From Puniceicoccales bacterium (lineage in GTDB: Bacteria > Verrucomicrobiota > Verrucomicrobiia > Opitutales > JAIRLM01), in the NCBI GenBank assembly GCA_031259325.1, contig JAIRLM010000025.1, positions 612 through 64,611 of the forward strand: a DNA stretch of 64,000 bases, read 5' to 3'. Both the position numbers and the translations under genes were made by a program. Numbering within the stretch: the first letter of the stretch is position 1; every line of letters begins with the position of its first letter. The notes under the pieces are model-generated. The model was not told the DNA's origin and ran no database searches. It saw only the letters and a program-made list of their open reading frames with translations. Below are positions 3,683-18,718 of this stretch, piece by piece.

Positions 3683-3698
3683 GGATTAGTGTTAATTA

Positions 3699-4355: not shown

Positions 4356-5276
4356 TTAGGCCTGTTGTGGTTGGTTTGTCGGTGGAGAAAGCGGCACGGT
4401 GTGCTCGATCCGGGATGCGATGAAGAGAAGTATCGCTCCGACGGCGGTTAATCCAATGGCAATGGCGAGAAGTATTAGAAGAATCGGAGGGCATGCAAGG
4501 GTAAGAACGCCGGCGGCCATCGATGCCGCAATAATTTCTGTAATCAACGCCGCACCAATGGCACCGGAAGCGGCGAAAAGAATGGTGGAAAATTTTTCTA
4601 AAAATTTTCGAACAACAGGTTTGAATGTCTCATTACCGGGCGCGATTTTTCCCCTCGCCGTATAGATTTCAAACTCGCTCCCCGTATAATTTTCCCCGCG
4701 CATAAATTTTAAAAGTTTTCTGACGTCGCCCCCGTCACTCACCGCGCCACAATAGACCCCATTAGCAGGAAATACTATGGCGTCGATCTGGACGGAATTT
4801 TCATCGCTTTTCAATGCCGCTTCTAATTCCATCATGGTGAGATCTCGCAAGGATCCACTGCTATCGGAGACGAGAAAGCGTGTTTTTGCAAAATCCGAGG
4901 TGGACATTTTATCAGCGATATTTTGCGGAACACCAAAAATATCGGCGAACAAGTCTCTCAAATCGCGCCCCACGGGGGTGAAATTATTTGACTCATTTTC
5001 TGCGCTGGATCCTGCTGTTGTACTGGACTTTTTCCTTGTGATGCTGGCGGGATCGATTTCGAGCATCCGTATATCTTTTTCCTTGAAGTTCTCCGCCGCA
5101 GTGACTTTCCCCTTGTAGATCCTAAGCCCGGAGTCACTTCTCACAACATAAAGAAGATTCGTTCCACTTACGTATGTTCCTATGGATTTTTCTGCGCCGC
5201 GCCTATTAATCTCCGCCAGCGTAGCCGATGGAATTATGACCTGTGGGCGCGGCGGTGGTACCTGGAAAACACTCAT
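4356..5276 (-). CDS. hypothetical membrane-anchored protein with C-terminal bilobed hydrophobic domain
   Basis: 306-aa ORF. The soluble N-terminal part has no recognised motif. The C-terminus reads ILFAASGAIGAALITEIIAASMAAGVLTLA-CPP-ILLILLAIAIGLTAVGAILLFIA, then a Pro/Gln tail. An AT-rich 132-bp gap lies upstream and contains TTGCAA-17 nt-TAAACT (5309..5314 and 5286..5291 on the minus strand). Confidence 0.6.
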   Translation of the reverse strand: MSVFQVPPPRPQVIIPSATLAEINRRGAEKSIGTYVSGTNLLYVVRSDSGLRIYKGKVTAAENFKEKDIRMLEIDPASITRKKSSTTAGSSAENESNNFTPVGRDLRDLFADIFGVPQNIADKMSTSDFAKTRFLVSDSSGSLRDLTMMELEAALKSDENSVQIDAIVFPANGVYCGAVSDGGDVRKLLKFMRGENYTGSEFEIYTARGKIAPGNETFKPVVRKFLEKFSTILFAASGAIGAALITEIIAASMAAGVLTLACPPILLILLAIAIGLTAVGAILLFIASRIEHTVPLSPPTNQPQQA

Positions 5277-5408: not shown

Positions 5409-5963
5409 TTACATTTTAGCTATTTGCCAGCACACGGCATCGATTTCAAAGGAATCAATGGCTCCGCTTAGGCCGGTGTAGGAGGTCGACAAATAGAGGG
5501 GAATAGTCCGCGAAAAGAGGTCGAAGGAGGACGTGGCAAGGATGGTGTGGCCGGAGGGGAGGCTGACGGAGAGAAGGATTTCGCCGTTGGGATAGGTGCC
5601 TTCTTGGAAGGCGAGATCGAGGGCATAGGCGTTCGTGCCCTGGTAGACCTGCGCCGGATTGAGTTGAAAAAAAGTGCCCATGGAGGTGGTTTCGTCGAAG
5701 GATTCATGGGTGAATTCCGGGTAATTGGCGAGGCGGCCCACCGGTTGGGTCTCGCAGGTGATGGTGTAGGCATTGGCGTAGGTGCCGAGTCCGTCGATGG
5801 TGTACGAATAGCTCACCGACAGGGACCGCAGCATCCAAAAGATGGTGGCGATTTCCTGGGGACTCATGCCCGCGAGGAGTTCATCGCCCGTGGCCGGTTG
5901 CGTGAGAATGGGGTGCGGCAACCCGGATGGATTGACGGCGACGAGGAAGGGATTGGCACTCAT
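5409..5963 (-). CDS. phage-like cluster protein, last gene (function unknown)
   Basis: 184-aa ORF. ATG at 5963 overlaps the upstream stop (ATGA). Beta-rich sequence with no recognised motif. Confidence 0.55.
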   Translation of the reverse strand: MSANPFLVAVNPSGLPHPILTQPATGDELLAGMSPQEIATIFWMLRSLSVSYSYTIDGLGTYANAYTITCETQPVGRLANYPEFTHESFDETTSMGTFFQLNPAQVYQGTNAYALDLAFQEGTYPNGEILLSVSLPSGHTILATSSFDLFSRTIPLYLSTSYTGLSGAIDSFEIDAVCWQIAKM

Positions 5964-7729
5964 GGCGTTGAAAGTTTGTTTTCATCGGGTGTGTAGGGTT
6001 GGGAAGCTAGGGTGAGGCGCTTTTTTAGGATTCCATTTTCGCAAACGTCCTCCTCCCGCGGCTGGAGAACCAGGCCGGTGAGACCGATTTGCCGCGTGTC
6101 CAAGGCAATCCGCCGTGTGTCGTCCGTCCCGTCGGCGAGGAGCAGGTGGCTGTAAGTTGTTGTCCCCGTGTGCGTATTTTCCTGGGGCATCTCCCGTGCT
6201 TGCTCGATATGGTCATCGGAACCCTCCCCATTGGTGCGGATGTACACGGATCGGGGTGCCTCCCGCCGCCGATTAACGCGACTGAGTTGGATTAAATCTT
6301 TCAAGCCCAGATGTTTTGGCGGACCAAAGCGCATGCGCACGGTGCCGGTGTCCAAATGTTCGGCGCATTCCTGAATTTGCGCGTCCATGGTTTCCCACAA
6401 AACATTTCCGCCGGTGAGATTTAGCCGCGCGCCCATGGGGATGGGGGAAATTTCCTCGCCCGAAATTTGCAGTGTTCCCTCGAAGGTCAAATCGCCGAAG
6501 CTCTCATAAATCGCTCGGGACAAACCGGTTGGGGTCGCTTCCGCATCGGCAAAGCTGGAAAGCCGCGCGTAGGTCTGGCTGACGGCATCGGTGGCTTTGA
6601 TTTTCACCGCCACTTCCTGCTGGGCCACACCCGTTGCGCCGTCATCATAGGCCAAAGTGGCGCGGACAATATCCGTTTCCGCGGAGACATCCATCCAGTC
6701 GGCAATGCCGCCATCGCGCAATTCCCGGGGCAGCGTGGAATCCCGGCCATAGGAAAGAATGGTTATGTCGTCGGGATCCAGCGAAGCCAGGGCGGGCAGA
6801 TGGTCCTGCCACCAAATGACGCTCGCGGGGTCAACTTCCTCGGTCGCAATGGATTGGGAGATATACTGGCTCTGAGTGCCGGCGAGTTCCACGGTAAGAA
6901 TGAGAATCCGCGGCTGCTGTTCGGAAATTTCCACCGGGTAACGGTCGGTTTCGAGGGTCCTCCAGGTGCGGCCGCCGGCGGAATGCACGCGCTCGTATTT
7001 TATGGCAACTCCCCGCAATAGAAGATCATAGCGTGGAGAAATGGAAAGGGAACTGAGCGAGGAACCCATCGCACGGGTAAGCGGCGGTAGTTCCATGCGG
7101 CGCGCTATGTGCAAAGTTGGTAAGGCGGTGCCGTAGTCGAACCACGTCATTGCATCGGGAACCCATCGTAAAACGCGCTGAATGGCCTCGGCGCAGCTCA
7201 AATCCTTGCATTCGTCAAAGGGCATGGTTTGGGATAAATTGATGCTTCCCAAGGAAATGGGAATGCCGCAGCTCAAGGCATAGTCTAAAATGTCCGCCAA
7301 CTGGGCGCCGATGGAAAGCACCTCGCCCTCCTCCGATTGGCCCAGGATGATATGGCTCTTGTGGGCGGTTGTAAGGGGCGAATCGGGGTCGTCGGGATCG
7401 GCGGCGATGGCCCAGGGCTGCTGGTAAATGGTCGTCTCCAGGTACCACCAGGGTCCGCTCACCTTGTAATATTTGGATTCATCGGAACCGTCGCCGTAGG
7501 ATGGAATTTCCGTCACCACGCCCAAGAACCATTGCGTTTCGTCGCAATTCACCCGGATCGGCGCGAGTGGGGCGAAAATGGGTCCATCGGTAAGCGCTTG
7601 GGCGGCAACGTGTCGGAAGGTTAGCACGTCCCGGCCCTGGTTGATTCGCTGGCGGCGGATGTCTCCGATTCCCCACTGTCCGAACGTTTGGGTCACACCG
7701 TCATAGGTCAGGGTCCAGTCCATGGTCAT
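5960..7729 (-). CDS. phage-like tail-end structural protein (hub/host-recognition module by position; function unassigned)
   Basis: Probable start MTMDWTLTYDGVTQTFGQWGIGD at ATG 7729 (or 7723), overlapping the stop of the small ORF 7726..7857. The 103 upstream codons of track ORF 5960..8038 overlap the fibre gene and look spurious. Confidence 0.6.
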   Translation of the reverse strand: MTMDWTLTYDGVTQTFGQWGIGDIRRQRINQGRDVLTFRHVAAQALTDGPIFAPLAPIRVNCDETQWFLGVVTEIPSYGDGSDESKYYKVSGPWWYLETTIYQQPWAIAADPDDPDSPLTTAHKSHIILGQSEEGEVLSIGAQLADILDYALSCGIPISLGSINLSQTMPFDECKDLSCAEAIQRVLRWVPDAMTWFDYGTALPTLHIARRMELPPLTRAMGSSLSSLSISPRYDLLLRGVAIKYERVHSAGGRTWRTLETDRYPVEISEQQPRILILTVELAGTQSQYISQSIATEEVDPASVIWWQDHLPALASLDPDDITILSYGRDSTLPRELRDGGIADWMDVSAETDIVRATLAYDDGATGVAQQEVAVKIKATDAVSQTYARLSSFADAEATPTGLSRAIYESFGDLTFEGTLQISGEEISPIPMGARLNLTGGNVLWETMDAQIQECAEHLDTGTVRMRFGPPKHLGLKDLIQLSRVNRRREAPRSVYIRTNGEGSDDHIEQAREMPQENTHTGTTTYSHLLLADGTDDTRRIALDTRQIGLTGLVLQPREEDVCENGILKKRLTLASQPYTPDENKLSTP

Positions 7730-7857
7730 GCCTCGCTGCGCAGGGATTGAATTTGTAGTTCCAACTCGACAACCTTCGCTTCTAATTCTTCCAGGCGTCG
7801 CAGGAGTTCCGCCGATAATTCCGGCTGTGACGCTGAAGGGGAAACGGTTGCATCCAT
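7726..7857 (-). CDS. small coiled-coil protein (43 aa), not in the ORF track
   Basis: Translated by hand: MDATVSPSASQPELSAELLRRLEELEAKVVELELQIQSLRSEA. AAGGAG lies 6 nt upstream of the ATG. The TGA overlaps the ATG of the next gene (ATGA). Confidence 0.45.
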   Translation of the reverse strand: MDATVSPSASQPELSAELLRRLEELEAKVVELELQIQSLRSEA

Positions 7858-7866
7858 AAAAACTCC

Positions 7867-9540
7867 TTACCAGAGGGGAACGGTGAATCCGTAAAACACG
7901 CGGAAAAAGGCCGAGGCGGAATCGGCGGTTGCCGTGCGCGTGAGCTTTGCGCAATAAACGGTGGGGCCGGAGGTGTCCGCCGGGAGTGGAAGCGCGGAAA
8001 ATGCCGTCGGCGCGGATTCGTTGGCCGCGTAGGTGCATGAGGGTACCGCCATGAATTGCTCCGGGAAAACGACATCCTGGACCACCGGCTGGCCCTGCGT
8101 GACCGAACCTCGAAACGCCGTCAAAATGCGCTGGTAGCGGGCGCAGAGGGCTTTTTGATCCGCTTCCGGTGTTATGATAGGAAATGGTTGCTCCGTGTTT
8201 CCCATGCCAACGGCCGGCCGATAAATGCGGAATCCATAGTCCGCCGCGACGCTCGAACCTGTTCCGTAGGGCGTATGAGTGAATCTTAAACAGATTTGGA
8301 CGACGTTCGCGGGGATATTAAACGTAAATGAATAGCGGGCGTAGGAATCCGTTGGAATGGCATAAACGCTCTCAACGGCATGAAGTACAACGTTTTGGGA
8401 TACAAACTCTCCCTTGTTGTTTATTTTGGTAAAGTTTGCGGTGTTTGTGGTCCCCGTGGCGGAGAAATTAATGCCGTTGCTCGCCGTGTTTGGAAATCCG
8501 GTATCGGCCAGCAGGTCCACGGAGAATGTCACCTGTTTCCCGCGCAGGGGAAAGGTTTTGATGGGCGTAAACGGTCGAAAAATGCGCATTTCCTGGGTAG
8601 AGGTGTTCCCGACGGGCCGGGTGATGTGCATGCAGTTCAGTTGCAGGGCGGCATCCACGGTTTCAATGGAACTCGTTGCCTGATAGGAGGAACCGGCGAT
8701 TTGCTGATAGCCCATCCAGCCGTCGGAAAGCGCGACCATGGCGATATTTGCCAAAGTCGCCGATGTGCCGTTGGTGTTCAATCGGAACGCCCCGTTGCTC
8801 AGGTGATTCGGCGAACCTCCACTGCCCGAAATGGCGGTGATGGAATCATCCACGTAGGTTTTCACACTCCACTGGGTGGGGACATCGATGGTGGAGGCCG
8901 ATGCCATATCCCCCTCATTGAGAGCATCATAAAGCGCAGCCGTTCCCAATTGCAGGTTATCGCGGGCCGCGGCCACATTTGACAAATCTTGCAGATTTTG
9001 ATTGCGCCGGGCAAAGAGGGCATCGCACTGGTCGCGATTATAGAAGCGATCCTCCGGTTCCGGCGGCGTGAGGTCGATGCCTCCGGAGGACTCCCGGATT
9101 GAAATCCTTCCCGCGCAAATGGTTATAATTTTCACCGGATCGTCCACGGTTTCCGCCCAAATGACCAACCACGCATCCCGGGCGACGACGGATGACTCAT
9201 CGGCGGTAAATGTAATAACCGCCTGCTGTTTGGTTCCGTTTTCCCAGGTTTCTTCGGTGACGGTGCCATCGAAAGTGGCCGCGACCGCTTCCCCGCGCAT
9301 GAGGGGCAGAACGGAGACGTCCGGAGCCGTATCCTCCGGTCCCATGGGTTTGATGTCCAAGACGATGAGGCCAATGTTATCCAGCGGCTGGAGCATTCCC
9401 CGGTCGAAAACGGCCAGCTGAAACTGCAAATCGTTGCCCTTCCAGAAGATGGGCGTGCGGCCGGTGTGGATATCCCGCGGGGCGTCAAAGTTGCTGATGT
9501 CGCAGGCGATGCGGATGGTTGCGATTGCGGCCATGGTCAC
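7867..9540 (-). CDS. phage tail fibre-like protein
   Basis: 557 aa, beta-rich. Contains RRNQNLQDLSNVAAARDNLQLGTAALYD, which resembles the NLxDLxxxxxARxNLGLG collar motif common in phage fibre proteins. GTG at 9540 overlaps the upstream stop (GTGA); an alternative ATG is at 9534. Confidence 0.55.
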   Translation of the reverse strand: MTMAAIATIRIACDISNFDAPRDIHTGRTPIFWKGNDLQFQLAVFDRGMLQPLDNIGLIVLDIKPMGPEDTAPDVSVLPLMRGEAVAATFDGTVTEETWENGTKQQAVITFTADESSVVARDAWLVIWAETVDDPVKIITICAGRISIRESSGGIDLTPPEPEDRFYNRDQCDALFARRNQNLQDLSNVAAARDNLQLGTAALYDALNEGDMASASTIDVPTQWSVKTYVDDSITAISGSGGSPNHLSNGAFRLNTNGTSATLANIAMVALSDGWMGYQQIAGSSYQATSSIETVDAALQLNCMHITRPVGNTSTQEMRIFRPFTPIKTFPLRGKQVTFSVDLLADTGFPNTASNGINFSATGTTNTANFTKINNKGEFVSQNVVLHAVESVYAIPTDSYARYSFTFNIPANVVQICLRFTHTPYGTGSSVAADYGFRIYRPAVGMGNTEQPFPIITPEADQKALCARYQRILTAFRGSVTQGQPVVQDVVFPEQFMAVPSCTYAANESAPTAFSALPLPADTSGPTVYCAKLTRTATADSASAFFRVFYGFTVPLW

Positions 9541-9947
9541 TGGTCCTCCTGTGGTATGGCGATGAGCGCGCCGCCAACGATGTCGTAATGATGCACTGTA
9601 GCGATGCCCTCCTGCGTGCCACGAATGCGGCGGATGGTGCTATCCCCGAGGACGTAGGATGGCGGAGAATCTCCTTCGCCGACGATGCGAAAATTCCCCG
9701 CCGCACCGGTGAGAATGGCCGCGTGGGTGAGGAGAAATTCGGAGCTTTTTTCCACGGACGCGTGCTTCCGCCGCAGCGAAAATTGCAGATTCGTGGTTCG
9801 ATTTTTGCGGTCGATGGGTTTTGCCGCCGCCGCCCGCAGGGTCTTGACGATTTGAATGATTCCCGCCGTTTCCAAAACGAGGTCAAACGGTTCCTCATCC
9901 GCATCTTGTCCGCCGGCCAGGCAGTAATTACCGATGAAAAATTTCAT
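9537..9947 (-). CDS. phage-like cluster protein (136 aa, unassigned; neck/tail adaptor by position)
   Basis: The ORF starts 3 nt after the upstream stop. No recognised motif. Confidence 0.5.
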   Translation of the reverse strand: MKFFIGNYCLAGGQDADEEPFDLVLETAGIIQIVKTLRAAAAKPIDRKNRTTNLQFSLRRKHASVEKSSEFLLTHAAILTGAAGNFRIVGEGDSPPSYVLGDSTIRRIRGTQEGIATVHHYDIVGGALIAIPQEDQ

Positions 9948-9950
9948 AAA

Positions 9951-10427
9951 TTATTTCTCCTTTCCGTCGCTCCAGGGGAACGACATTTCAAATTCAAAGG
10001 TGAGTAAAATTTCCAACCGCATGTCCGTGGTGAAATTTTCATTTATCTTCCACGGCTCCTTAAGTTTAGGCATCAACGCGCCAAACGTTTGATCGCACTG
10101 AATCCGCCGGCCGGTGAGCATGGAATGGATAAATTCAGCGGCACCCAGGGCGCCACCCGTTGACACGTCGGTGAAAGCATTTTCCACCACGAGAATGCGC
10201 ACGGCCACCGTCGCATCGTAGGGCACCGGCCAATTGCGGCGGAATTCCACGGGTACGGGCGGAAGAACGATGACGCACAAATTGGTTTGTTTGTGCACGT
10301 CGATATCCAACATGCCCCCCATGTCACCGGGACGGTAAAGAAATACGCTCTTTCCGGATAATTCCCACCGGTCGCGTAATATTTCAAAAACGGCTTCTTG
10401 AAGAAGTTCTAAACGGCTGATAATCAT
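9951..10427 (-). CDS. phage-like cluster protein (158 aa, unassigned; head-tail joining by position)
   Basis: The ORF starts 14 nt after the upstream stop. No recognised motif. Confidence 0.5.
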   Translation of the reverse strand: MIISRLELLQEAVFEILRDRWELSGKSVFLYRPGDMGGMLDIDVHKQTNLCVIVLPPVPVEFRRNWPVPYDATVAVRILVVENAFTDVSTGGALGAAEFIHSMLTGRRIQCDQTFGALMPKLKEPWKINENFTTDMRLEILLTFEFEMSFPWSDGKEK

Positions 10428-10441
10428 AGTATTGTCCTATT

Positions 10442-10909
10442 TTACAGTCCGGAAAGGGCCGCCGCCGTTGTCTTCCGCCGCCGGGCATGGAGGCACACCA
10501 TGGATGCAGAACCGCCGTATTCACCCTCCTCCGCCGGATGGTAGGGGAGACTGACCCGAATTTCACCGTGGGCGACGGCGCGCAGCTGCTCCCGCGCCAC
10601 ATCCGCCGCCTTTTGCTGCTCCGGCAACAGTTGCAGCGGGGGAATCCGGCCCTGAAGTGCCTCCAATGCCAATGCGCAGGCGGTTGGCAGCAATTCAACG
10701 GGAATCAGACGTGGGTCATCGCTCAGTTGATTTTTCGCATGGCTTCCGACGGCTTGTCGCACCCGACGGGTCACATCGGAAATTAACGGGGGTAGCGGGT
10801 CATGTTCCCCGGCGCCCAGCACCACCGTTCGCAGCAGGCGAATTTGCCGCGCCATCAGATAAATCTCCAAATGGCTTGGTGCTAATAGTATCCAATCACT
10901 TACTCTCAT
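10442..10909 (-). CDS. putative head-tail connector (Mu gp36/DUF1320-like)
   Basis: ATG at 10909 (MRVSDWILLAPSHLEIYL...), 37 nt after the capsid stop. The helical pattern ...ACALALEALQGR...QQKAADVAREQLRAVAHGEIRVSL resembles DUF1320-type connectors. The track ORF extends to 11005 and would overlap the capsid gene. Confidence 0.45.
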   Translation of the reverse strand: MRVSDWILLAPSHLEIYLMARQIRLLRTVVLGAGEHDPLPPLISDVTRRVRQAVGSHAKNQLSDDPRLIPVELLPTACALALEALQGRIPPLQLLPEQQKAADVAREQLRAVAHGEIRVSLPYHPAEEGEYGGSASMVCLHARRRKTTAAALSGL

Positions 10910-10946
10910 ATTTTTAATTTGGTTATCTGCTATGGAATAAACGGCC

Positions 10947-11921
10947 CTATTCGCCGGAACCGGCGGTGACGGTAAGCCACTTGATGCCGCCCTCGGAGGT
11001 GACAATAATGTTGCTGTAATGCTCCACGGTGAGATCGGTGAACTTGGAGTGCTCTTCCAAATAGACGCGGAAGTTGCTGCCGTCGATGGGCGTTACGAAA
11101 CGTTTGATGTTCGCCGGCTCGTCCTTTACGATGTCATTCTGCGTGTAAAAAAGGTACACGTCATTGCCAACAATTCGCGCCTTGTTGGTTGGCGAGCTTT
11201 GATAGCGGGCGCTGAAAACGCGGATTTCGTCGACGAACAGCTTGTGGGCCAGGTCGCCCATGGAAAGTGTTGCCGCCCGCTGAGCCGCCGCCGTGGATTG
11301 GGTGTCGTAAACATCGGAACGCAGGTCCCAAACGCCTTCACCGTAAATGATACGATTTGGCCGAACGCCCGTGATATCCGCCGCATTGGATAGTTCCACG
11401 CGGATGTCCGAATCCGGATTATGGGACCCGGTCTCCCCTCCCCAAACCTTTGGAATTGGCGTGGTTGAGGAGTTAAGCGCGGCGATGGCCCGTCGCAATT
11501 CATTTCGATAGAGTCGGCGAAGCAGCAACTGCACATAGCGCTCCCGCCAGTCGTCGCCGGCAACGTCATCGTGGTCCACGCGGATGGTGAGACCCTTATT
11601 GAACGTCTTGGCCATGACGGACGTGCCCGTGAAATCCACGGTTTTGAACGCGGAACCGATGGCCCGCACGTCGTCGTTTTCCGACAAAAATGCCTGCGCA
11701 TTGTCCGCTTTTTTAAACTCGAAGCGCTTGCCCACGTGAATCACCGGTGCGATGAAGTTGAGCAAATCTTCGATATTTTCCGGATCCTTCCAGCCGACGG
11801 TAAAAGCCGTGAGCGGTTCCGAATAATTGGCGCTGGTAAACCGGGACTCGTTGGCCGCGCAAACAACGCCCTTTTCATTATTTTCCCCGTCCGATGGTAA
11901 AATTTCAATTAATTCTTTCAT
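10947..11921 (-). CDS. putative major capsid protein
   Basis: 324 aa. It sits directly after the protease/scaffold and decoration-like genes, the lambda-like order protease-decoration-capsid. Size and position only; no motif verified. Confidence 0.55.
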   Translation of the reverse strand: MKELIEILPSDGENNEKGVVCAANESRFTSANYSEPLTAFTVGWKDPENIEDLLNFIAPVIHVGKRFEFKKADNAQAFLSENDDVRAIGSAFKTVDFTGTSVMAKTFNKGLTIRVDHDDVAGDDWRERYVQLLLRRLYRNELRRAIAALNSSTTPIPKVWGGETGSHNPDSDIRVELSNAADITGVRPNRIIYGEGVWDLRSDVYDTQSTAAAQRAATLSMGDLAHKLFVDEIRVFSARYQSSPTNKARIVGNDVYLFYTQNDIVKDEPANIKRFVTPIDGSNFRVYLEEHSKFTDLTVEHYSNIIVTSEGGIKWLTVTAGSGE

Positions 11922-11978
11922 GATATTTCAATTCTAAATGGGAACGCCTTGGTGGGTTGCCGGCATGACCGTTACCCC

Positions 11979-12416
11979 TTAATCCGTGGAATCGGTTGTG
12001 ACGACAATGTTGAAGGGAAGCCCCGTGAGCACTTCCACCATCTCGCCTGCCATGGTTGCCGTGCTAAGTGCAATGCCAACGACGCGGTGGGTTCCGCTGG
12101 TGGATGGCAGGGGAATGATTTTTCCATTTGCCGTTCCAACGACGAAGGTCCCGGAACTGATGGGCCCAGCTGCGCTAATCAAGGTCGTGGATCCCCCGCC
12201 AAGTAATTGCACGTTAACCGGATCTTCCGCAGCCTCCGCCTCGTCGGTCACCACCCCGATGGGTAATTCCCCAGCCGCCGTTGGATGCACCGCATTTCCT
12301 TGCAACGCGACGAGCACATGAGCCGTTGAAATGGGTGCCGCCGCCAGGAATGTTATATTTCCCTCGTGCGTACCTTCGGCCACATTCGCAAAAATGATTT
12401 GTTTTTCTTTTTTCAT
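11979..12416 (-). CDS. putative head decoration protein (DUF2190-like)
   Basis: ATG at 12416 with AAGGAA 8 nt upstream. A 145-aa Gly/Ala/Val-rich beta protein (MKKEKQIIFANVAEGTHEGNITFLAAAP...) lying between protease and capsid. Confidence 0.45.
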   Translation of the reverse strand: MKKEKQIIFANVAEGTHEGNITFLAAAPISTAHVLVALQGNAVHPTAAGELPIGVVTDEAEAAEDPVNVQLLGGGSTTLISAAGPISSGTFVVGTANGKIIPLPSTSGTHRVVGIALSTATMAGEMVEVLTGLPFNIVVTTDSTD

Positions 12417-12465
12417 ATTCGTATTCCTTAAATGTAAATAAATCAATTCCCCACATGGGAGAAAG

Positions 12466-13383
12466 TTAGCCTTCGAACCAAAAGGGATGGGTCCGTTTCA
12501 CATTGCACCATGCGGCGGCAAAGGATTCGTGCTCCCGTTCCATGCGCTCGCGCACGAGCGTCAACACACGTTGTTTTCTCATTTCGTTCGAAAGACGGCA
12601 TCGCCGGTCCAGCGATTGGGTGATGGCTTGCCGGTTAATAATATTTTTCGGCAGTCGGGCGCAGTTGGCGATGACCGGCGCGCCCTGTTCCGGCATGCGC
12701 AATAATCCAACGGGCGGCAGATCGATGCCCGTGGGCATGGGTTCCCGGGGATCATCATTGGTGGAGATGTCGCCGGTAATTGCCTCCGCGGGGATATCTT
12801 CCGTTTGGACATCCTCCCCGGGAATATCTTCCGCGGGAGCACCCTCCGTTCGTGCCATTTCCGCCGTTTCTTCGCCGGCGCCCTCCTGGTTGGCAATGGC
12901 TTCCACGTCCATGTTGGGCGTATTTGTGAGCCCGATGGAAAGCAGCTGTTTTGGCGTAAAGCGTTCGTTGCCAAGCGGCACCATTTCCCAGCGCGGTGAA
13001 AGGAATTTGTAATAAGCATTTTCAAGAAGTTCCGCCCCCGCCCGGGACCATTTTGGACAAACCCAAAGGCCATCATCGCGCGCTTCGATGAATTTCACCC
13101 AACCGTAGGCGCGGGTGTCGTCGTGGCCCACCTGTCCGCGGAAGGCCGGATCATCCGGGTGGCCAATGTAAATGGGAACACCGCGAAATCGGCGTGCGAG
13201 CCGTTGGCGGAGGGATGAGAACCGCCGGGCCATTTGCTTGCATGCGGAGGCGTCCACAATTTGCATGCCGAGCCGGTGTTGGTATTCGCCGTAGTCCACC
13301 AGCTTCAGCCACCCGCCGCAATCGTCGTCCTTCACGGTATTTGCGCTCGTTAGAATCATCGTTTCCATGTCTTTTCCACTCAT
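12466..13383 (-). CDS. Mu gpI-type head maturation protease/scaffold
   Basis: ATG at 13383 with a GAGGA SD. YGWVKFIEARDDGLWVCPKWSRAGAELLENAYYKFLSPRW matches the Mu I-protein pattern (GW...dGLW...W...YryLSP.f). Acidic repetitive middle part: AEDIPGEDVQTEDIPAEAITGD. Confidence 0.7.
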   Translation of the reverse strand: MSGKDMETMILTSANTVKDDDCGGWLKLVDYGEYQHRLGMQIVDASACKQMARRFSSLRQRLARRFRGVPIYIGHPDDPAFRGQVGHDDTRAYGWVKFIEARDDGLWVCPKWSRAGAELLENAYYKFLSPRWEMVPLGNERFTPKQLLSIGLTNTPNMDVEAIANQEGAGEETAEMARTEGAPAEDIPGEDVQTEDIPAEAITGDISTNDDPREPMPTGIDLPPVGLLRMPEQGAPVIANCARLPKNIINRQAITQSLDRRCRLSNEMRKQRVLTLVRERMEREHESFAAAWCNVKRTHPFWFEG

Positions 13384-13403
13384 TGCATTATCCTCGTTGC
13401 CAT

Positions 13404-14600
13404 CTAAGATTTCAGAGAACCGCGCACGCCGAAGTGTTCGCACAGGTCATTTGCCGGAATTTGCACGCCCAACTTCGCCAGTCGCTCGTACAGCTCCAAG
13501 TCCCGCAAAAAATTATCACTTTGCGCGGATTGCAAAGACAGGTAGGCCTTAACGGGCGCGTCACCGAAAAGATAATTGAGCACGTAGCGGTCCACCTGCT
13601 CATTGAGGACCTCGGAGATCATCGCCGCATCATCCTGCTCCAGAATGCTTTGCCCCTCCGCCTGCATGGACGCGCCCACGCCATTGCCCCGGGACAGGGT
13701 TGACAAATCGGATCCACACCAAAGCGCCGCCATCGCCCGGTCCATGCGGTCCACCAGCGCCGGGTATGGAAGTGTTCCGCGGGATGTAAGGTCAATGGCC
13801 TGCAAGTCGCTCCCCGTGGACATGAGCGCGTTAAATTCCGCCCCAAAGGCTTCCACCGCCTGCTTGGCCATCTCCCACTGCGGCGTCCCGGGAACGGCAT
13901 CGGTCACACCCTTCACACCGGGCATGCCGTTGCGGTCACAATAAACCAGCCAATCGCGGAGGGGCAAATGTTTGAACAAATAGGCAATGGAACAAGCTTC
14001 CATAAGGCCGTCGCCCACGGTCACGAGCCAGGCGCCCCCCTCCAGGGGAATCCCCTCCCGCATCACGTCGGTGGGCAAAAAGCGCAGCAGTCCCGTGTAA
14101 TTTTCAAAGTACCACAGGGGAACGAAGCGAAATTCCGCGGAAAGCAGCGGCCGCGCGCAATTATTAATAAAGCAGTGGTCGTGAATTTGATAAATAATTT
14201 CATGGACCGCGTACTTTTTCCCCACGGAGTCCATCATCTGCTTCACGAGCAGGGCAAAGGATCCGCGCTCGTTGTGATCAATGGCACCCGTGCAGCGGAG
14301 ATTGTTGTAGAAAAAATGCAGCGCTTCTTGTTGCTGCCGCGCCTCTTCGGAATCATCCGTTGTCAGCACGGTCCACCGCAGTCGCGCCACGGCTTTTTTG
14401 CGTTTTGCCGCCACGCCCTTTAGCACGTCATCCCGCCGCTCAATGGCATCCCAAAGCAGCGCCGCCGGCCATAATTCGCCCCGATGGAAGGCGTCCAATT
14501 GCCGGGTAAGCGACTCCGGCGTGAGGGCGCGAATGGGGTTAAACCCTTGCCGCGGACTATGTTTCGGGCACAGCGTTTGTATGTCTGATTTCGTTTTCAT
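13404..14600 (-). CDS. phage portal protein, Mu gp29/DUF935 type
   Basis: The N-terminal pattern LTRQLDAFHRGELWPAALLWDAIERRDDVLKGVAAKRKKAVARLRWTV parallels Mu gp29 as I recall it (...MLRDAERGDL...DMEEKDTHLFSELSKRRLAI..LEWRI). It lies between the terminase and the protease. Confidence 0.75.
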   Translation of the reverse strand: MKTKSDIQTLCPKHSPRQGFNPIRALTPESLTRQLDAFHRGELWPAALLWDAIERRDDVLKGVAAKRKKAVARLRWTVLTTDDSEEARQQQEALHFFYNNLRCTGAIDHNERGSFALLVKQMMDSVGKKYAVHEIIYQIHDHCFINNCARPLLSAEFRFVPLWYFENYTGLLRFLPTDVMREGIPLEGGAWLVTVGDGLMEACSIAYLFKHLPLRDWLVYCDRNGMPGVKGVTDAVPGTPQWEMAKQAVEAFGAEFNALMSTGSDLQAIDLTSRGTLPYPALVDRMDRAMAALWCGSDLSTLSRGNGVGASMQAEGQSILEQDDAAMISEVLNEQVDRYVLNYLFGDAPVKAYLSLQSAQSDNFLRDLELYERLAKLGVQIPANDLCEHFGVRGSLKS

Positions 14601-14642
14601 GGGTTATGCGGAAATAGGTGACATGGTGAATGGGTGAGATAC

Positions 14643-16055
14643 CTAGAGAAAAAAGGGGGATCGTTGCGGCCGTTGAATTACCTGGAACGCCCCGCCACCG
14701 GTCTTTGATCGCTGGGCTTCACCGCCATGGAAGGCATGAATGGCGAGGGCCAGTGCCCAAAAGCGATCGGCGTGTCCGTTTCTTCCCCGATCCGCTGCAA
14801 ATCGTAAATTCCCGGCGAGGGTTACCTCCCGGCGAATGGCGTGCAAGTCCGCGCGAATGTTGTCATCACCGGGAATCCGCACCCCGCGACGTTCGAAAAA
14901 AGTGCGCAGCAGGTATGCCAGAGATTCTTTTACCTCCGCCGTGAATGTCACGCCCTCCACCCGGCCGGCACCAAATTTTGCCACCGCCCGCTCCGTGAAC
15001 TGCCGACCCATGCCCGTTTGGTCGATGCACACCCGCCGCAGGTGGGGAATGCGCAGCAATTCGTGTAAAACGCCCTCCTGTGCCACAAATGTCTGTTGGG
15101 CAAGGCATTCCACCAACCGCGTGTGCATGACGTCACCCACCTGCTCCAGCAACCAGAAGACGGTCAAATCGTGCTCCCGGCCCAGGTCCACACCCAGATA
15201 GAACTCCCCGTGGGGCAGGGGTGCATCCGGGGGCGAATGGGGTAAAGTAATTTGCCATTGGGTATCGGCGGGGTATTCGCACGCGCGGATCATTTCCGAC
15301 GGTAAAAACGCCGTCCGGTCGTCCAGCGGCTGGCACATGTATTCCTGCTGAAAGGTGGCCTCATCTGGGCAGGTGGTGCGGATGAAATCAAAGTACTGCG
15401 CCGCGTCCATGAACTGGCGCGGGTCATTCGCCGGCAACTTGGCCTTTAATTTTTCTAAAAATCCCTGCTCCAGGGCATCCTGTAGTGTCACCCGGTGCAG
15501 GGAGAATTTTTTGGGATTTCCCTCGTAGCGCGCCTCCTGAATGAGCTGATTAAAAAAGTTAAACGAGCCCCGGTGCGTGGAGAGAATTTCCAGCTGTCCG
15601 CCCCAGGTAATTCCAGGTAAGGCGATGGAGTATAGGAGCTTTGGGTCACCGTGGAGGGCGAATTCGTCCAAAACCCGATTGCCCCGCTTCCCCGCCTGCG
15701 CGTCCGGGTTCGAGGAAAGGGAATGTACCGCCGTGTTATTGGCAAATGTAATGGCCATGGCCGACGCACGCGCCTTTGGAGTCAGCACCCGCCGCCGTAT
15801 TTTCGTGGCAGCGCCGTCGAACAGGGAGGCAAAGGTGCAACAGTCGGCGAGAAATAGCTTGGCCTGCATTTCGTCCCTGGAAGATACCCAGCTATCACGG
15901 GTATAATGTTTTGTAACATGTTGGCGCACGAGATGATACGCCGTGGCCCAGGACATGCCCACCTGCCGAGATTTTTCCATAATCTTCAGCCGGGCACCGT
16001 CCAGAATCCACCGGCGCTGGTAAGGGAGAAAAAAAGGCATGGCTTTCGGTTTCAT
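14643..16055 (-). CDS. phage terminase large subunit
   Basis: Walker-A-like KSRQVGMSW and Walker B NRVLDEFA. C-terminal RNase-H-type nuclease motifs YLGVDLGREHD and GHADRFWALALA. The ATG overlaps the upstream stop (ATGA). Confidence 0.9.
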   Translation of the reverse strand: MKPKAMPFFLPYQRRWILDGARLKIMEKSRQVGMSWATAYHLVRQHVTKHYTRDSWVSSRDEMQAKLFLADCCTFASLFDGAATKIRRRVLTPKARASAMAITFANNTAVHSLSSNPDAQAGKRGNRVLDEFALHGDPKLLYSIALPGITWGGQLEILSTHRGSFNFFNQLIQEARYEGNPKKFSLHRVTLQDALEQGFLEKLKAKLPANDPRQFMDAAQYFDFIRTTCPDEATFQQEYMCQPLDDRTAFLPSEMIRACEYPADTQWQITLPHSPPDAPLPHGEFYLGVDLGREHDLTVFWLLEQVGDVMHTRLVECLAQQTFVAQEGVLHELLRIPHLRRVCIDQTGMGRQFTERAVAKFGAGRVEGVTFTAEVKESLAYLLRTFFERRGVRIPGDDNIRADLHAIRREVTLAGNLRFAADRGRNGHADRFWALALAIHAFHGGEAQRSKTGGGAFQVIQRPQRSPFFL

Positions 16056-16429
16056 AGCAGCCTCAACTGCCTTTCCAATTGGCGCACGATGGGCATATCC
16101 AACCCCTCCCGCGCGCGACCGGCCATGCCTACACTGTCGTCAAGTTGGCTGCGCAGTGTAAGTACCTGCTGGCTGCTGACCAGGAGTCTTTGCAAAATGG
16201 TGGCGATCGTATTGAGCTCGGACAGATCTCGCGTGACAAAAATCCTGTCCAACAGGCCGCTTAGCATTTGGCCAATGGAGGCGTCCGCCAGATCGCTATG
16301 GGAGGTGTCCGAAGCTCTTTTCCTCTTGCGGGCACTTTTACGCGAACCCGCCGGGATTTCGCCACCGCTTTCACTGGTCAAGGAGGAGTCCATCTCCGGG
16401 TCGTCATTGCTAGGAGTTGAATGTTTCAT
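16052..16429 (-). CDS. putative terminase small subunit
   Basis: 125-aa ORF immediately upstream of, and ATGA-overlapping, the large terminase. Basic patch SRKSARKRKRA followed by a helical C-terminal half. Assigned by position only. Confidence 0.4.
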   Translation of the reverse strand: MKHSTPSNDDPEMDSSLTSESGGEIPAGSRKSARKRKRASDTSHSDLADASIGQMLSGLLDRIFVTRDLSELNTIATILQRLLVSSQQVLTLRSQLDDSVGMAGRAREGLDMPIVRQLERQLRLL

Positions 16430-16722
16430 CGACGTTCACCACCGGCTTTTTGTGAATAGGTAAGAAAATGAAGGGTATTTTCATAGGCGTCCACGCGGGC
16501 CAGCAACCCACTGGTACGCCTCTGCAGCAAAGCGATTTGCCGGCGCAGGGCACCAATTTCCAAACTCTGCCGATGGGCAACTTTCTGGCACTCCCGCAAA
16601 AACGAATTATGCAGTCCCAGGACCGTGAAATAAAATCCTGAAAATGTGATTCCAATGAGAGCCGCCCGACAAATAAAATCGCCGAACACCTTCGCCCGAA
16701 ACCACTTGCTGAGGATTTTCAT
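16426..16722 (-). CDS. phage-like cluster protein with one TM segment and a coiled coil
   Basis: 98 aa. TM-like segment ICRAALIGITFSGFYFTVLGL, then a helical stretch ...LEIGALRRQIALLQRRTSGLLARV. ATGA overlaps at both ends. Confidence 0.5.
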   Translation of the reverse strand: MKILSKWFRAKVFGDFICRAALIGITFSGFYFTVLGLHNSFLRECQKVAHRQSLEIGALRRQIALLQRRTSGLLARVDAYENTLHFLTYSQKAGGERR

Positions 16723-16961
16723 ACGGCACCTCCAAGGGAAGTGCCGCCCGCCGGATACGACCTTGTATCATTGGCATTGGAGTGAATCCCTAGGGTTGCA
16801 TCAGCGCTTCGGACGACGTACTCACTCGGAAGGGAACGTTTGGAGAGTGGGAAAAAGTCGTCACAGTAAGCGCTTGACAACGGGGGAAACAGCCAAGTAC
16901 CATCCCTCGTCGTGAGTGTTATTTCGCGTGTGGCAGTGTATCTGGCGGATTGATCGCTCAT
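16719..16961 (-). CDS. first ORF of the phage-like operon (80 aa, unknown)
   Basis: ATG at 16961. Its stop overlaps the next ATG (ATGA), which argues for translation. No motif recognised. Confidence 0.4.
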   Translation of the reverse strand: MSDQSARYTATREITLTTRDGTWLFPPLSSAYCDDFFPLSKRSLPSEYVVRSADATLGIHSNANDTRSYPAGGTSLGGAV

Positions 16962-17040
16962 GGTCCTGAGTTCCTCGGGTCTCCCCGATGGAAAACCCGC
17001 ATCTAGTCTACCACGGAATCGCCAAATGCAAAACGGCCGG

Positions 17041-17080
17041 TTGGTTCCATTGGTTTCGTTGGGACCGTTGGATCTGTTGG
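17041..17080. repeat. five TTGG tetramers at an exact 9-bp period (candidate operator/iteron array)
   Basis: TTGG starts at 17041, 17050, 17059, 17068 and 17077. The array lies in the 257-bp gap upstream of the phage-like operon. The palindrome TTGTACAA is at 17100..17107. Confidence 0.6.
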
Positions 17081-17218
17081 GCGAAAATAGGACGAAATTT
17101 TGTACAATGGCGCTATCGGCCAGACGAAAATGGGTGCCACCGATGGATGCTGAAAAAGAAAAACTTCCAAGGGAGTTGGATTTTTCAAATTTCTCTTCAG
17201 AAAGCGAGGATCAACCAG

Positions 17219-18718
17219 CTACGGCTTCGCCTTTCGCTTGAGTGCCAATTCTTCTTCGGCCAGCCAGGTTTTTCGCATTTCGAGAATTTCTGCGTCCGTG
17301 CGGCCAAGTGCAACGGCCAATTTCTCACGATATTCATGCGGCATTCGCGAAATGAATACCAATGTGTACGTTTGCGACCATTGAGAATCATTATCCGTGG
17401 TGTATGGGCACTTACAGATGAGTCGGATTAATCGCAACGCCACATCTTTCGGGGAATGACGCAAACAATTTCTTATCAATGCCTTAGCCGTCCTACTTGT
17501 GCCAGTATCAGTGAAATATGACGTGACAGCCACAGGACCATCCACATTATCAAATTGTTCTTCAAGCGCGGCAACTTCTTTCTCCATCGCATCTGGGTGC
17601 TCCGCAAATATATCATACCCAAACTCGTGGTGTAACACACATCCGTCCGGATAATGCGCACGTTCAAAGCATTCATCGAAATCCATTGAACGCGTGCTGT
17701 TTTTCAGTAGTATTTTTCTTGCGGAAGAGTTGAATCGCATTCGAAATTGGGTAGATGTTATCGTGCCGCCGGTAAGAAAAGAATGCAACGCATCTAACTT
17801 TTCGCCCACGTTTACATCGTTAAAATCTCGTATTTCGAAACATGTGCGTGCATCTTCTCTCATCCCAGGAGTGGAATTCAGCAATAGAAAATCAAACGCG
17901 GCGTTTGATCCTTGACTCGCATCGTCGCCGTAATGTGTTTCTTTGAAGAGTAAACTAAGCACCTGACCATGTATTTGTTTGGCATCCACCGGCGAACACT
18001 GCCTGCAAATGGATACGGCCGCAGCTAAAATTTTAGGAAACCCTATGCAACCCCTAGTCCAACAAAGATTTTTTTCCAGAAGGGGAAAAACATGCTTCCA
18101 GGCGGCGACTTTGTCGGGAGAACCAAGCAATATTTTTTGCAGCGCACCAGCGGCGGTCGCGCCAGCGATAGTATCATATTCATTTCGGCACGCTGCGTCT
18201 ATAACTGGATCAAACCGTGTCCACGTCAGGTCCGTATCCTTGTCCGCACGGACAAATGCGGGCCTCATATGTTCCAAGTCAGCGTCATTGATACCGTCAA
18301 AAACTGCCGAAGCTTCCCAAATGCTGTTTAGCTCATCGGCAACCGTCGCCATAAGCTCGGCGTGGTCGCGGGCGGCCTTGGCTGGATTGACCCACCACCA
18401 CAGGCCAACACAAACCGCCACGGTGCCTCCGGCGATGCAATCAAGTACAATCAGTGCTGGACCAAACGGGATTCCGAAGAAGCAGCTCCCCGCCAGAATC
18501 GCAAACGCCGCCACCGCGGCAACCGAGAGTAGTGCATCAATTACGGTGGCATTACCAAACACGGCTACTACAAACCTCGTTGCCTTCGTATGTACGGTCG
18601 GGAAACGTGACTCAATGCTCTTGAGCGCCCGTGAAGCACAGCTGGATAAACGAACTGCATACCAGGACAAATAGGCATCTGGAGAAACGGACAAAAGCGG
18701 AGGAGGCGCATCATTCAT
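17219..18718 (-). CDS. hypothetical membrane protein with N-proximal bilobed hydrophobic domain (Inc-like architecture)
   Basis: 499 aa. Residues ~62-110 read LLSVAAVAAFAILAGSCFFGI-PFGP-ALIVLDCIAGGTVAVCVGLWWWV. The large C-terminal part has no recognised motif. GC is lower than in the core genes. Confidence 0.65.
   Translation of the reverse strand: MNDAPPPLLSVSPDAYLSWYAVRLSSCASRALKSIESRFPTVHTKATRFVVAVFGNATVIDALLSVAAVAAFAILAGSCFFGIPFGPALIVLDCIAGGTVAVCVGLWWWVNPAKAARDHAELMATVADELNSIWEASAVFDGINDADLEHMRPAFVRADKDTDLTWTRFDPVIDAACRNEYDTIAGATAAGALQKILLGSPDKVAAWKHVFPLLEKNLCWTRGCIGFPKILAAAVSICRQCSPVDAKQIHGQVLSLLFKETHYGDDASQGSNAAFDFLLLNSTPGMREDARTCFEIRDFNDVNVGEKLDALHSFLTGGTITSTQFRMRFNSSARKILLKNSTRSMDFDECFERAHYPDGCVLHHEFGYDIFAEHPDAMEKEVAALEEQFDNVDGPVAVTSYFTDTGTSRTAKALIRNCLRHSPKDVALRLIRLICKCPYTTDNDSQWSQTYTLVFISRMPHEYREKLAVALGRTDAEILEMRKTWLAEEELALKRKAKP

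Follow-up and report, generated by a model that had tools for sequence, protein, structure and literature searches.

What is a compact set of phage head genes doing on a bacterial chromosome without any recognisable means to integrate, replicate or lyse the cell? We addressed this question for an 11.6-kb gene cluster at positions 5409-16961 (minus strand) of a 64,000-nt stretch of DNA from a Puniceicoccales (Verrucomicrobiota) MAG (GCA_031259325.1, contig JAIRLM010000025.1, positions 612 to 64,611), in the following referred to as the window. A first-pass annotation, made from the sequence alone, had described 15 consecutive, tightly overlapping minus-strand ORFs as a Mu-type module of head and fibre genes only, without integrase, replication, lysis or tube genes, and had offered three models, namely a GTA-like or otherwise domesticated particle, a capsid-forming satellite, or a short-tailed defective prophage. 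We find that this block of virus-derived genes, predicted to specify a DNA-filled head with a very short tail, has relatives in at least 148 species of one verrucomicrobial order and co-diverges with the neighbouring chromosome, which makes it a strong candidate, on sequence evidence alone, for a new gene-transfer-agent-like system.

Gene content of the cluster

The observation itself was confirmed. All 15 minus-strand ORFs are present, and the 4-nt start/stop overlaps at 16722/16719, 16429/16426, 16055/16052, 7729/7726 and 5963/5960, together with the GTGA overlap at 9540/9537, follow from their coordinates, the overlap at 7729/7726 involving a 43-aa ORF at 7726-7857. The cluster has a GC content of 56.6% compared to 53.6% for the rest of the window, while its low-GC neighbours (17107-20642) are at 49.0%. 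Profile searches detected no integrase, transposase, replication or lysis family in the cluster or its flanks, where several ORFs (u306, u499 and p602) gave no family hit, and no sheath, regulator gene or normal tape measure was identified in the cluster. However, the annotation as head and fibre only, without a tube, is wrong at the level of predicted folds, since a tube-fold protein, a baseplate hub and a coiled-coil micro-ORF are present.

The operon is preceded by a conserved non-coding leader or regulatory region (16962-17107, minus strand), carrying CCAAC/CCAAT direct boxes and a TTGCAT..TAGACT promoter-like pair. It retains about 85-90% nucleotide identity among the window and two related loci, L001 and L002, although synonymous sites are near saturation (dS about 1), and homology to L002 stops at about 17107. 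The first ORF, A80 (16719-16961), is a doubtful gene which may be part of the leader: its dN/dS is 0.97 against L001 and 0.51 against L002, it is found only in these two loci and it has no family hit. B98 (16426-16722) is a small protein with a hydrophobic segment and a dN/dS of 0.15-0.19. It gave no Pfam or NCBIfam hit and occupies the position of a small ORF family (f10) of other loci, without showing an HMM match to it. C125 (16052-16429) is assigned as the small terminase subunit (Mu gp27-like), since it matches the HMM of the ORF family located immediately upstream of TerL in 42 loci (E=1e-12), members of which in turn hit Phage_Mu_Gp27 PF11985 (3e-6). Its dN/dS is 0.24-0.36, and it is ATGA-coupled to the large terminase.

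The large terminase (14643-16055), with ATPase and nuclease parts, matches Terminase_6N/6C (4e-10 and 3e-16) and phrog_5909 (2e-40). Its KSRQxGxS Walker A-like motif, VLDEFA Walker B motif and nuclease Asp motifs are conserved in 54 species, and dN/dS is 0.03-0.11. The portal (13404-14600) belongs to the Mu-type DUF935 family (Portal_Mu PF06074, 1e-56) with a dN/dS of 0.05; of 935 homologues, every named one among the best 120 is from Puniceicoccales, Opitutales or Verrucomicrobia. It is followed by a Mu gpI-type prohead protease (12466-13443; Mu-like_Pro PF10123, 3e-12; phrog_328, 1.5e-16; dN/dS 0.12-0.16), whose true start may be the ATG at 13383 and whose acidic linker and C-terminal part we infer to be scaffold. 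The cement or decoration protein (11979-12416) matches Phage_cement_2 PF09956 (2e-5) and phrog_673 (9e-16) and has a dN/dS of 0.07-0.08. The major capsid protein (10947-11921) matches the major head protein family phrog_1005 (2.4e-10), is 41-92% identical in 70 loci and has a dN/dS of 0.04-0.06, while no match was found in cultured phages or PDB sequences.

Predicted neck and tail components

The connector I (10442-10909), for which the alignment consensus extends upstream of the first-guess start so that the start is corrected to MRVSDW, is assigned as a head-tail adaptor of Mu gp36/DUF1320, Ad1 type. This assignment, already made in the first-pass annotation, is only weakly supported, resting on family members, two of which hit PF07030 and one the Ad1 adaptor family phrog_477, with a hit to PF05135 in addition, and on a homologue in the viral contig L092 which hits PF07030. 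J158 (9951-10427) is a neck protein conserved in position, homologous to a protein termed J2 of the gut/rumen loci (HMM 5e-7) and with a dN/dS of 0.12-0.15. It gave no Pfam, PDB or NCBIfam hit, and only from its position do we infer a stopper or terminator.

K136 (9537-9947), found in 50 loci, is predicted to be a ring protein of the tail-tube/Dit/Hcp fold. Its AF2 model (pLDDT 85) gave Foldseek PDB hits including a phage 80alpha baseplate chain, eCIS and pyocin tubes, and RcGTA neck/virion chains 6toa_G and 6tba, at a probability of about 1, yet the match is moderate, with E about 1e-3 and TM 0.4-0.5. L557 (7867-9540) is a fibre or receptor-binding protein with weak PHROG tail-fibre hits (1e-4), in which the N-terminal third is conserved in 36 loci and the rest is variable. 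It is homologous to the long fibres of the marine loci (HMM 5e-49) and evolves faster than the head genes (70-74% identity against about 90%). The 43-aa micro-ORF x43 (7726-7857) encodes a coiled coil and overlaps the hub gene by ATGA. Similar short leucine-zipper peptides lie directly upstream of the hub gene in at least 15 loci of both cluster types, and we propose that x43 is a minimal tape-measure-like plug or an assembly factor. M589 (5960-7729) is predicted to be a baseplate hub or central spike of the gp27/Mu gp44/VgrG/Tal-N fold. Its AF2 model (pLDDT 87) matches eCIS, PVC, diffocin, Mu gp44, the MuSo2 43-kDa tail protein, T4 gp27 and VgrG structures (Foldseek PDB, E 3e-13 to 1e-9) as well as BFVD tail proteins (up to 3.5e-27), and its dN/dS is 0.10. 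The conserved last gene, N184 (5409-5963), is taken to encode a distal tail protein without a recognised fold; it is homologous to the last gene of the gut/rumen loci (HMM 1e-17), has a dN/dS of 0.16-0.17, and synteny with L001 and L002 ends at its stop codon.

Distribution, selection and inheritance

Comparison of the locus across related genomes, which had been suggested beforehand as the means to separate domestication from a prophage, favours domestication. A portal scan of one genome per species found 148 relatives, and we regard the cluster as syntenic in at least 148 Opitutales/Puniceicoccales species. All 80 loci kept are from Opitutales, Puniceicoccales or Verrucomicrobia, one per genome, and the order TerL-portal-protease-cement-MCP-I-J-K-(fibre)-hub-N is conserved, although some lineages have partial clusters or clusters with no adjacent TerL. 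Clustering of all ORFs in the 80 loci found no conserved family beyond the small ORFs upstream of TerL and the last gene. The flanks of 14 diverse loci are housekeeping genes such as aaRS, EF, NrdD, AccA, ThyA and PyrG, with no recurrent integrase or att-type boundary. Relatives continuing into integrase, lysis or long-tail modules, of which the copy in the window would be a truncated version, were not found.

The genes are under strong purifying selection, with dN/dS of 0.03-0.17 for all 13 ORFs tested other than the small upstream ORFs (x43 was not included), and no internal stop codons. The dS of the cluster against L002 (0.76-1.65) brackets the dS of the shared host flank genes (1.21-1.31). 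Identity of portal, TerL, MCP and hub correlates with identity of the flanking host genes over 54 genome pairs (r=0.96; flank identity 43-98%), cluster GC tracks flank GC from 37 to 68% (r=0.95, n=27), and head and tail genes co-diverge with each other (r=0.73-0.93). It should be noted that co-divergence was measured against neighbouring genes instead of a species tree, that the genome pairs are not independent, and that flanks are not conserved across the whole order, so that ancient relocations or transfers are not excluded.

Among viruses, IMG/VR contigs with Mu-like heads (L086-L113) share the portal-protease-cement-MCP module at 33-62% identity. J, K, fibre, hub and N are absent from nearly all of these phage contigs, the only matches being weak K hits at 28% in L108 and L111 and a J hit at 29% in L114. 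Cultured phages matched the portal at about 20-29% identity, with no more than about 25% in the comparison that also gave no capsid match.

Discussion

We propose, with moderate confidence only, that the cluster is a virus-derived, endogenized operon of the order Opitutales/Puniceicoccales that still builds a DNA-packaging particle. In this model, TerS (C125) and TerL cut DNA and pump it through a Mu-type portal into a head made of MCP, protease/scaffold and cement protein, which is closed by the gp36-type adaptor I and the neck protein J. A very short non-contractile tail would follow, consisting of the tube-fold ring K, a trimeric gp27-like hub (M589) with the 43-aa coiled coil, the distal protein N184 and the fibres L557. 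While the composition is supported by homology or predicted fold, the architecture is inferred, in the case of the tail from two predicted folds and gene order. What our analysis establishes is the lack of detectable integration, replication, transposition and lysis genes, and vertical inheritance in co-divergence with the host chromosome, within the limits given above. That particles are produced at all, that the host keeps the cluster for its own use, most likely as a gene-transfer-agent-like particle (viriform) packaging cellular DNA by headful and delivering it to related cells, that lysis and regulation would be supplied from elsewhere in the genome, and that the system arose independently of all known GTA families from a Mu-like-head phage lineage, are inferences. 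The interpretation given in the first-pass annotation is therefore supported in part: of its three models domestication is favoured, but the module is not restricted to head and fibre, and GTA function remains a hypothesis.

Measured against the definition of gene transfer agents by Kogay et al. 2022 (PMC9662315), the cluster uses proteins derived from a caudoviricete ancestor, as seen from significant matches to terminase, portal, protease, cement, capsid and adaptor families and to tube and hub folds, from which caudovirion-like particles are predicted. It is fully endogenized, being flanked by cellular genes in the window and in the 14 diverse loci, and, judged against neighbouring genes, it is mostly vertically inherited and co-diversifying with its hosts. 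The definition also calls for a head too small to package the whole GTA genome and for delivery of the encapsidated DNA to other cells, properties which are only hypothetical for the present cluster. RcGTA-type agents of Alphaproteobacteria (Rhodogtaviriformidae) are likewise compact head-tail clusters of about 12-15 kb without integrase, replication or lysis genes, endogenized, inherited vertically across an order-level clade, under purifying selection and host-like in composition, and share the module order terminase-portal-protease-capsid-adaptor-neck-tube-hub. RcGTA has a head of the HK97-type lineage. Here, portal, protease and TerS fall into Mu families (PF06074, PF10123, PF11985) accompanied by a cement protein, no hit to HK97-type families was obtained, and the only link is the shared tube fold of K136, so that the cluster does not belong to the RcGTA-like family. 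The host phylum differs, and there is no recognisable tape measure, Dit or megatron set, only a tube-fold ring, a 43-aa coiled coil and a hub.

A domesticated particle used for something other than gene transfer, such as a PBSX-like killer particle or bacteriocin that packages DNA incidentally, or a vehicle delivering DNA or protein in a symbiotic setting, remains possible but is less likely. The same evidence of domestication applies, the faster evolution of the fibre is as expected for a targeting protein, and the hub belongs to the fold family used by injection systems. PBSX of Bacillus provides a precedent (discussed in bioRxiv 10.1101/2024.11.15.623857), being a chromosomally fixed phage-derived cluster whose particles package DNA but cannot propagate. 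PBSX has a full contractile tail and lysis genes within a cluster of about 28 kb, neither of which was detected here. Without a sheath or a long tube, a contractile or pore-forming killing mechanism is not evident. TerS, TerL and portal are counted among the most constrained genes, TerS with the higher dN/dS given above, which argues that DNA packaging itself matters. The presence of constrained capsid, portal and terminase genes and the lack of a detected sheath likewise speak against a tailocin or contractile injection system, which has sheath, tube and baseplate without a capsid.

A mobile capsid-forming satellite, or a very small temperate phage relying on a helper for the missing functions and spreading horizontally among Opitutales, is unlikely. 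The size of about 11-12 kb and the presence of terminase, portal, protease, capsid and connector genes resemble capsid-forming satellites of cf-PICI type, the chromosomal position differs between distant lineages, and IMG/VR lists some copies as viral contigs (L081-L085, L114). However, such satellites carry integrase, regulation and replication modules, are mobile and depend on helper tails, while no integrase, primase/replication gene or excisionase appears in the window or recurs in the 80 loci. There is one copy per genome, no direct-repeat boundaries were reported, and dS, identity and GC all follow the host flanks.

A decaying defective prophage remnant with no current function, retained by chance, is largely refuted. 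The missing integration, replication and lysis modules would fit, as would lineages holding only fragments, with the head half only in locus L003, portal plus protease in L004 and portal only in L007. Yet twelve to fourteen genes are intact and in order across at least 80 species, at divergences where synonymous sites are saturated, with low dN/dS and retained catalytic motifs, and neutral remnants do not persist like this.

The structural half of an active Mu-like transposable prophage with its early and transposition region elsewhere or beyond the region examined is very unlikely, since, despite the Mu-type head module (gp27 TerS, gp28 TerL, gp29 portal, gpI protease and gp36 adaptor, with gp27 and gp36 matches that are weak or come only from family members) and a distant viral contig (L095) carrying a TniB/MuB-like ATPase next to a 685-aa ORF upstream of a related head module, both flanks in the window and in other loci are cellular genes within 0.1-3.5 kb of the operon, no DDE transposase, MuB-type ATPase or complete tail and lysis set was found in the window flanks or the 80 loci, and co-divergence with the flanks is incompatible with replicative transposition. 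Mu-like phages with flexible tails, such as Pseudomonas phage B3 and Pelagibaca phage vB_PeaS-P1, share the portal family, gpI-type protease, gp27-like TerS and gp36-like adaptor, but in the cluster there is no transposase/MuB, no Mu gpF-like gene between portal and protease, no Pfam gpT capsid match, no tape measure and no lysis gene.

Conclusions

The Mu-lineage head, the inferred stub tail and the verrucomicrobial host set the present cluster apart from RcGTA. In its furthest-reaching form, which we consider tentative and somewhat less likely than not, this would be an independently exapted gene-transfer-agent-type viriform family native to the order Opitutales/Puniceicoccales, the first in Verrucomicrobiota, covering termite-gut, rumen, human-gut and marine members. 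It would be built from a Mu-lineage head and a minimal tail lacking a tape measure, with one tube-fold ring, a 43-aa coiled coil and a gp27-like hub, a virion architecture which to our knowledge has not been described for any phage or GTA.

Gene content and organization

In this analysis, we observed an uninterrupted run of minus-strand ORFs from position 16961 down to 5409, which, with inclusion of a 43-aa ORF at 7726-7857, amounts to 15 ORFs, the number given by the first-pass annotation. The 4-nt start/stop overlaps at 16722/16719, 16429/16426, 16055/16052, 7729/7726 and 5963/5960, as well as the GTGA overlap at 9540/9537, follow directly from the ORF coordinates, while the other gaps measure 3-57 nt and the GTG start of the protease ORF overlaps the portal stop by 40 nt. 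The observation made in the first-pass annotation is therefore real, and profile searches confirmed the family calls it had made from motifs alone. The large terminase (TerL) matched Terminase_6N/6C and phrog_5909 (2e-40), the portal matched Portal_Mu PF06074 (1e-56), the protease matched Mu-like_Pro PF10123 (3e-12) and phrog_328, the cement protein matched Phage_cement_2 PF09956 (2e-5) and the capsid protein (MCP) matched phrog_1005 (2e-10), while the fibre gave only weak PHROG tail-fibre hits (1e-4). The cluster has a GC content of 56.6%, compared to 53.6% for the rest of the window and 49.0% for its low-GC neighbours.

The cluster resides in a Puniceicoccales (Verrucomicrobiota) MAG, and its portal is identical to an NCBI protein of such a MAG on a 64.7-kb contig. 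Downstream of it lie an orphan ORF (4356-5276), plsY, a PilT-like ATPase and a pseudouridine synthase, while upstream two orphan ORFs (17219-18718, minus strand, and 18735-20543, plus strand) are followed by a CesT-like chaperone, a T2SSE ATPase and a T2SSF protein. The cluster thus sits between type IV pilus/T2SS-type genes, with the PilT-like ATPase on one side and the CesT-like, T2SSE and T2SSF genes on the other (2528-3682 and 20723-23725), the upstream set being shared with L002, one of its two closest relatives. The two upstream orphan ORFs, for which no Pfam or PHROG hit was obtained, occupy about 3.5 kb of lower-GC (49%) sequence at 17107-20642, which is absent from the otherwise syntenic L002 and is therefore an insertion between the cluster leader and the host CesT-like gene. 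No tRNA was found at either border, and no integrase, transposase, repressor, replication or lysis family was detected.

A non-coding stretch directly upstream of the operon (16962-17107, minus strand) is about 85-90% identical among the window, L002 and the other closest locus, L001, while synonymous sites are saturated. It holds 4-5 CCAAC/CCAAT direct boxes, a TTGCAT..TAGACT promoter-like pair and a GGGTTTCCCATCGGGGAGCCC hairpin-like element. However, CCAAC-box enrichment upstream of the cluster is not a general regulatory signature across the order, since it is clear only in the window/L002 lineage and a few others, and a scan for sigma-70 promoters and terminators was not above shuffled expectation in any useful way.

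Predicted functions of the remaining ORFs

Taking predicted structures into account, two of the ORFs without family assignment could be placed in the tail. M589 (5960-7729) folds with high confidence (pLDDT 87) and matches baseplate hub and central-spike proteins at a Foldseek probability of 1.0 and E 3e-13 to 1e-9, namely eCIS/PVC/AFP spikes, diffocin, Mu gp44, the MuSo2 43-kDa tail protein, T4 gp27 and VgrG, and additionally matches viral tail proteins in BFVD with E up to 3.5e-27. K136 (9537-9947) is predicted to fold as a beta-sandwich with one helix and a long hairpin (pLDDT 85), and its best matches are all tube-family proteins, comprising a phage 80alpha baseplate chain, eCIS and pyocin tubes, Hcp, tail terminators and RcGTA neck/virion chains, with a probability of about 1 but E of only about 1e-3 and TM 0.4-0.5. 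In a search with the K family profile, the only named non-verrucomicrobial hit was protein P0242 from a Lentisphaerota MAG (E 1.8e-9), so that a related cluster may exist elsewhere in the PVC group.

C125 belongs to the family found directly upstream of TerL in 42 loci (HMM E 1e-12), members of which hit Mu gp27 (PF11985, 3e-6), the small terminase. The family of ORF I, the start of which was revised to 10909, gives weak hits to Mu gp36/DUF1320, the gp6-like connector and the Ad1 adaptor phrog. N184 is homologous to the last gene (family f14) of the gut/rumen versions of the cluster (1e-17), J158 is homologous to their J2 and the fibre is homologous to the long fibres of the marine versions. 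J158, N184 and the small ORF B98 remain without a fold or family. Pfam and PHROG searches with these three and with the small ORF A80 returned no hit or families of unknown function only. A80 shows a dN/dS of 0.5-1.0 and is probably not a gene. Searches of NCBIfam with ten cluster proteins gave no hit, and PDB sequence searches with profiles of M589, K, J and I and with the single MCP gave no useful hit.

The 43-aa micro-ORF x43 (7726-7857, minus strand) encodes a coiled coil and is ATGA-coupled to the hub gene. Similar leucine-zipper peptides of 25-45 aa lie directly upstream of the hub gene in many loci of both cluster types (L009, L033, L037, L046, L052-L054, L056, L060, L072, L075, L078 and L080). 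In the fibre-less type the order is tube-fold protein, coiled coil, hub, which is the canonical order of tube, tape measure and hub. We therefore propose that x43 may be a vestigial or minimal tape measure or plug, although this is inference only. The module is consequently not restricted to head and fibre, as the first-pass annotation had claimed, but encodes a head, a neck and a minimal tail consisting of a predicted tube-fold ring, hub and fibre, with no sheath and no normal tape measure.

Distribution, selection and descent

A pattern scan of one genome per species (GTDB) with a portal alignment found 148 relatives. The 80 loci kept are all Opitutales, Puniceicoccales or Verrucomicrobia, with one locus per genome, and come from termite gut, rumen, human gut, soil and marine sources, including the cultured Cerasicoccus arenae KCTC 12870 (locus L076). 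A further search for contigs encoding the portal added only a short duplicate contig, and a megablast search of E. coli genomes gave no match. Maps obtained by tblastn show the same order wherever enough sequence is present, TerL-portal-protease-cement-MCP-I-J-K-(fibre)-hub-N, with three sub-variants: a termite type with fibre and N, a gut/rumen type without the fibre gene and a marine type with long fibres. Clustering of all ORFs of the 80 loci revealed no conserved family outside this set, apart from small ORFs upstream of TerL, and the flank ORFs of 14 diverse loci are housekeeping genes with no recurrent integrase or transposase. A chromosomal site conserved across the whole order can be rejected, since plsY and the flank ORFs u306 and u499 are found next to the cluster in 0 of 80 loci and synteny of the flanks holds only within genus-level groups.

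Against the two closest loci, L001 and L002 (portal 91% and 89%), dN/dS is 0.03-0.17 for the 13 ORFs tested from B98 to N184 (a set not including x43), other than C125 (0.24-0.36), and there are no internal stops. The Walker A-like, Walker B and nuclease Asp motifs of TerL are conserved in 54 species. L002 shares the upstream host genes (CesT-like, T2SSE, T2SSF) with the window, and dS of those genes (1.21-1.31) lies within the range of dS for the cluster genes (0.76-1.65). Over 54 genome pairs that share flank genes, the mean identity of portal, TerL, MCP and hub correlates with the mean identity of the flank genes (Pearson r 0.96, flank identity 43-98%, core identity 53-98%), and cluster GC follows flank GC from 37% to 68% (r=0.95, n=27), being on average 2.7 points higher. 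Head and tail genes additionally co-diverge with one another (r 0.73-0.93), unlike mosaic phage genomes.

Some lineages, however, show decay or splitting of the cluster. L003 has the head half only, L004 has portal plus protease and L007 has portal only, while L009, L058 and L066 have no TerL beside the portal. Large ORFs upstream of the portal in loci that lack TerL were considered as alternative terminases, but are cellular (OEP, ABC-transporter auxiliary, Chlamydia-PMP repeats) or without assignment, with OEP and ABC-transporter auxiliary genes occupying this position in L058 and L066 and only unassigned ORFs in L009, so that TerL is either unlinked or lost in these lineages. This fits vertical inheritance with occasional loss rather than excision.

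Phage relatives

IMG/VR holds contigs of 30-58 kb that share the portal-protease-cement-MCP(-adaptor) module at 33-62% identity, but lack the fibre, hub and N, with only weak K or J hits (28-29%) in three of them. One of these, the 38-kb contig L095, carries at 831-4052 a TniB/MuB-like AAA ATPase next to a 685-aa ORF upstream of the related head module, which suggests that the free-living relatives are Mu-like transposable phages. Cultured phages match only at 20-29% on the portal, these being B3, vB_PeaS-P1 and similar phages, which are Mu-like siphoviruses, and a search of INPHARED phages with the capsid protein gave no match. The ancestor was therefore probably a Mu-like-head phage. The scenario that would have spoken against domestication according to the first-pass annotation was not found, since close homologues do not continue into integrase, lysis or long-tail genes. 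Besides these phages, IMG/VR lists short contigs as viral that carry the Opitutales-type cluster (L081-L085 and L114, portal 48-65% identical), most completely in L082, which runs from TerL to N184. These are probably host-genome fragments miscalled as viruses, and such clusters would thereby inflate provirus counts.

Discussion

The data show that the operon encodes a complete packaging motor, head, neck, predicted tube-fold ring, hub and fibre, and that it is endogenized, under purifying selection and vertically inherited. From this we infer a mechanism in which the operon would produce DNA-filled particles with a stub tail, where DNA would be cut and packaged by TerS/TerL, the particle would bind cells through the fibre L557, or through the hub or N in the fibre-less types, and the hub and coiled coil would open to release DNA. 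Lysis and regulation would in this view be encoded elsewhere, and the cargo would be cellular DNA, as in GTAs. While we consider domestication and vertical inheritance of the cluster highly likely, the whole statement, including a GTA-like role, is held with only moderate confidence, as little more likely than not.

Of the six defining GTA features listed by Kogay et al. 2022 (PMC9662315), three are borne out by the sequence data, namely caudoviricete-derived proteins, endogenization, and vertical inheritance with co-diversification, while random host DNA, a head too small for the locus and delivery are experimental features, so that a GTA-like function is at present assigned by analogy only. 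The cluster is not a member of the RcGTA family, because its head genes fall in Mu families, and it is not a Mu-like phage, because it has no transposition, lysis or full tail set. It is also not a cf-PICI-type satellite, because it has no integrase or replication genes and is not mobile, nor a tailocin, because capsid genes are present and no sheath is. The lead interpretation of the first-pass annotation, a domesticated, GTA-like particle, is the best supported one but is only partly supported, since a minimal tail is encoded and the function remains putative.

Only a handful of independently domesticated GTAs are known, nearly all of them in Proteobacteria, Spirochaetes and one archaeon, and a 2024 preprint (bioRxiv 10.1101/2024.11.15.623857) lists the known GTA hosts as Rhodobacterales, Desulfovibrio, Brachyspira, Bartonella, Caulobacter and Methanococcus, plus new Faecalibacterium candidates. 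Our literature searches found no report of a GTA or GTA-like element in Verrucomicrobia or Opitutales. Phage-derived particle systems exapted by their hosts are known, and the cluster described here would be an independently exapted, clade-wide system of this kind in a new phylum. A selectively maintained particle cluster across Opitutales would add a new phylum and a new ancestral phage lineage to this short list, and a cultured carrier exists in which the hypothesis is directly testable. It would also offer an unusually small tail, with a predicted tube-fold ring plus hub and no normal tape measure, as a model for minimal DNA-delivery machines, and would suggest capsid-mediated DNA exchange in gut, rumen, termite and marine Verrucomicrobiota.
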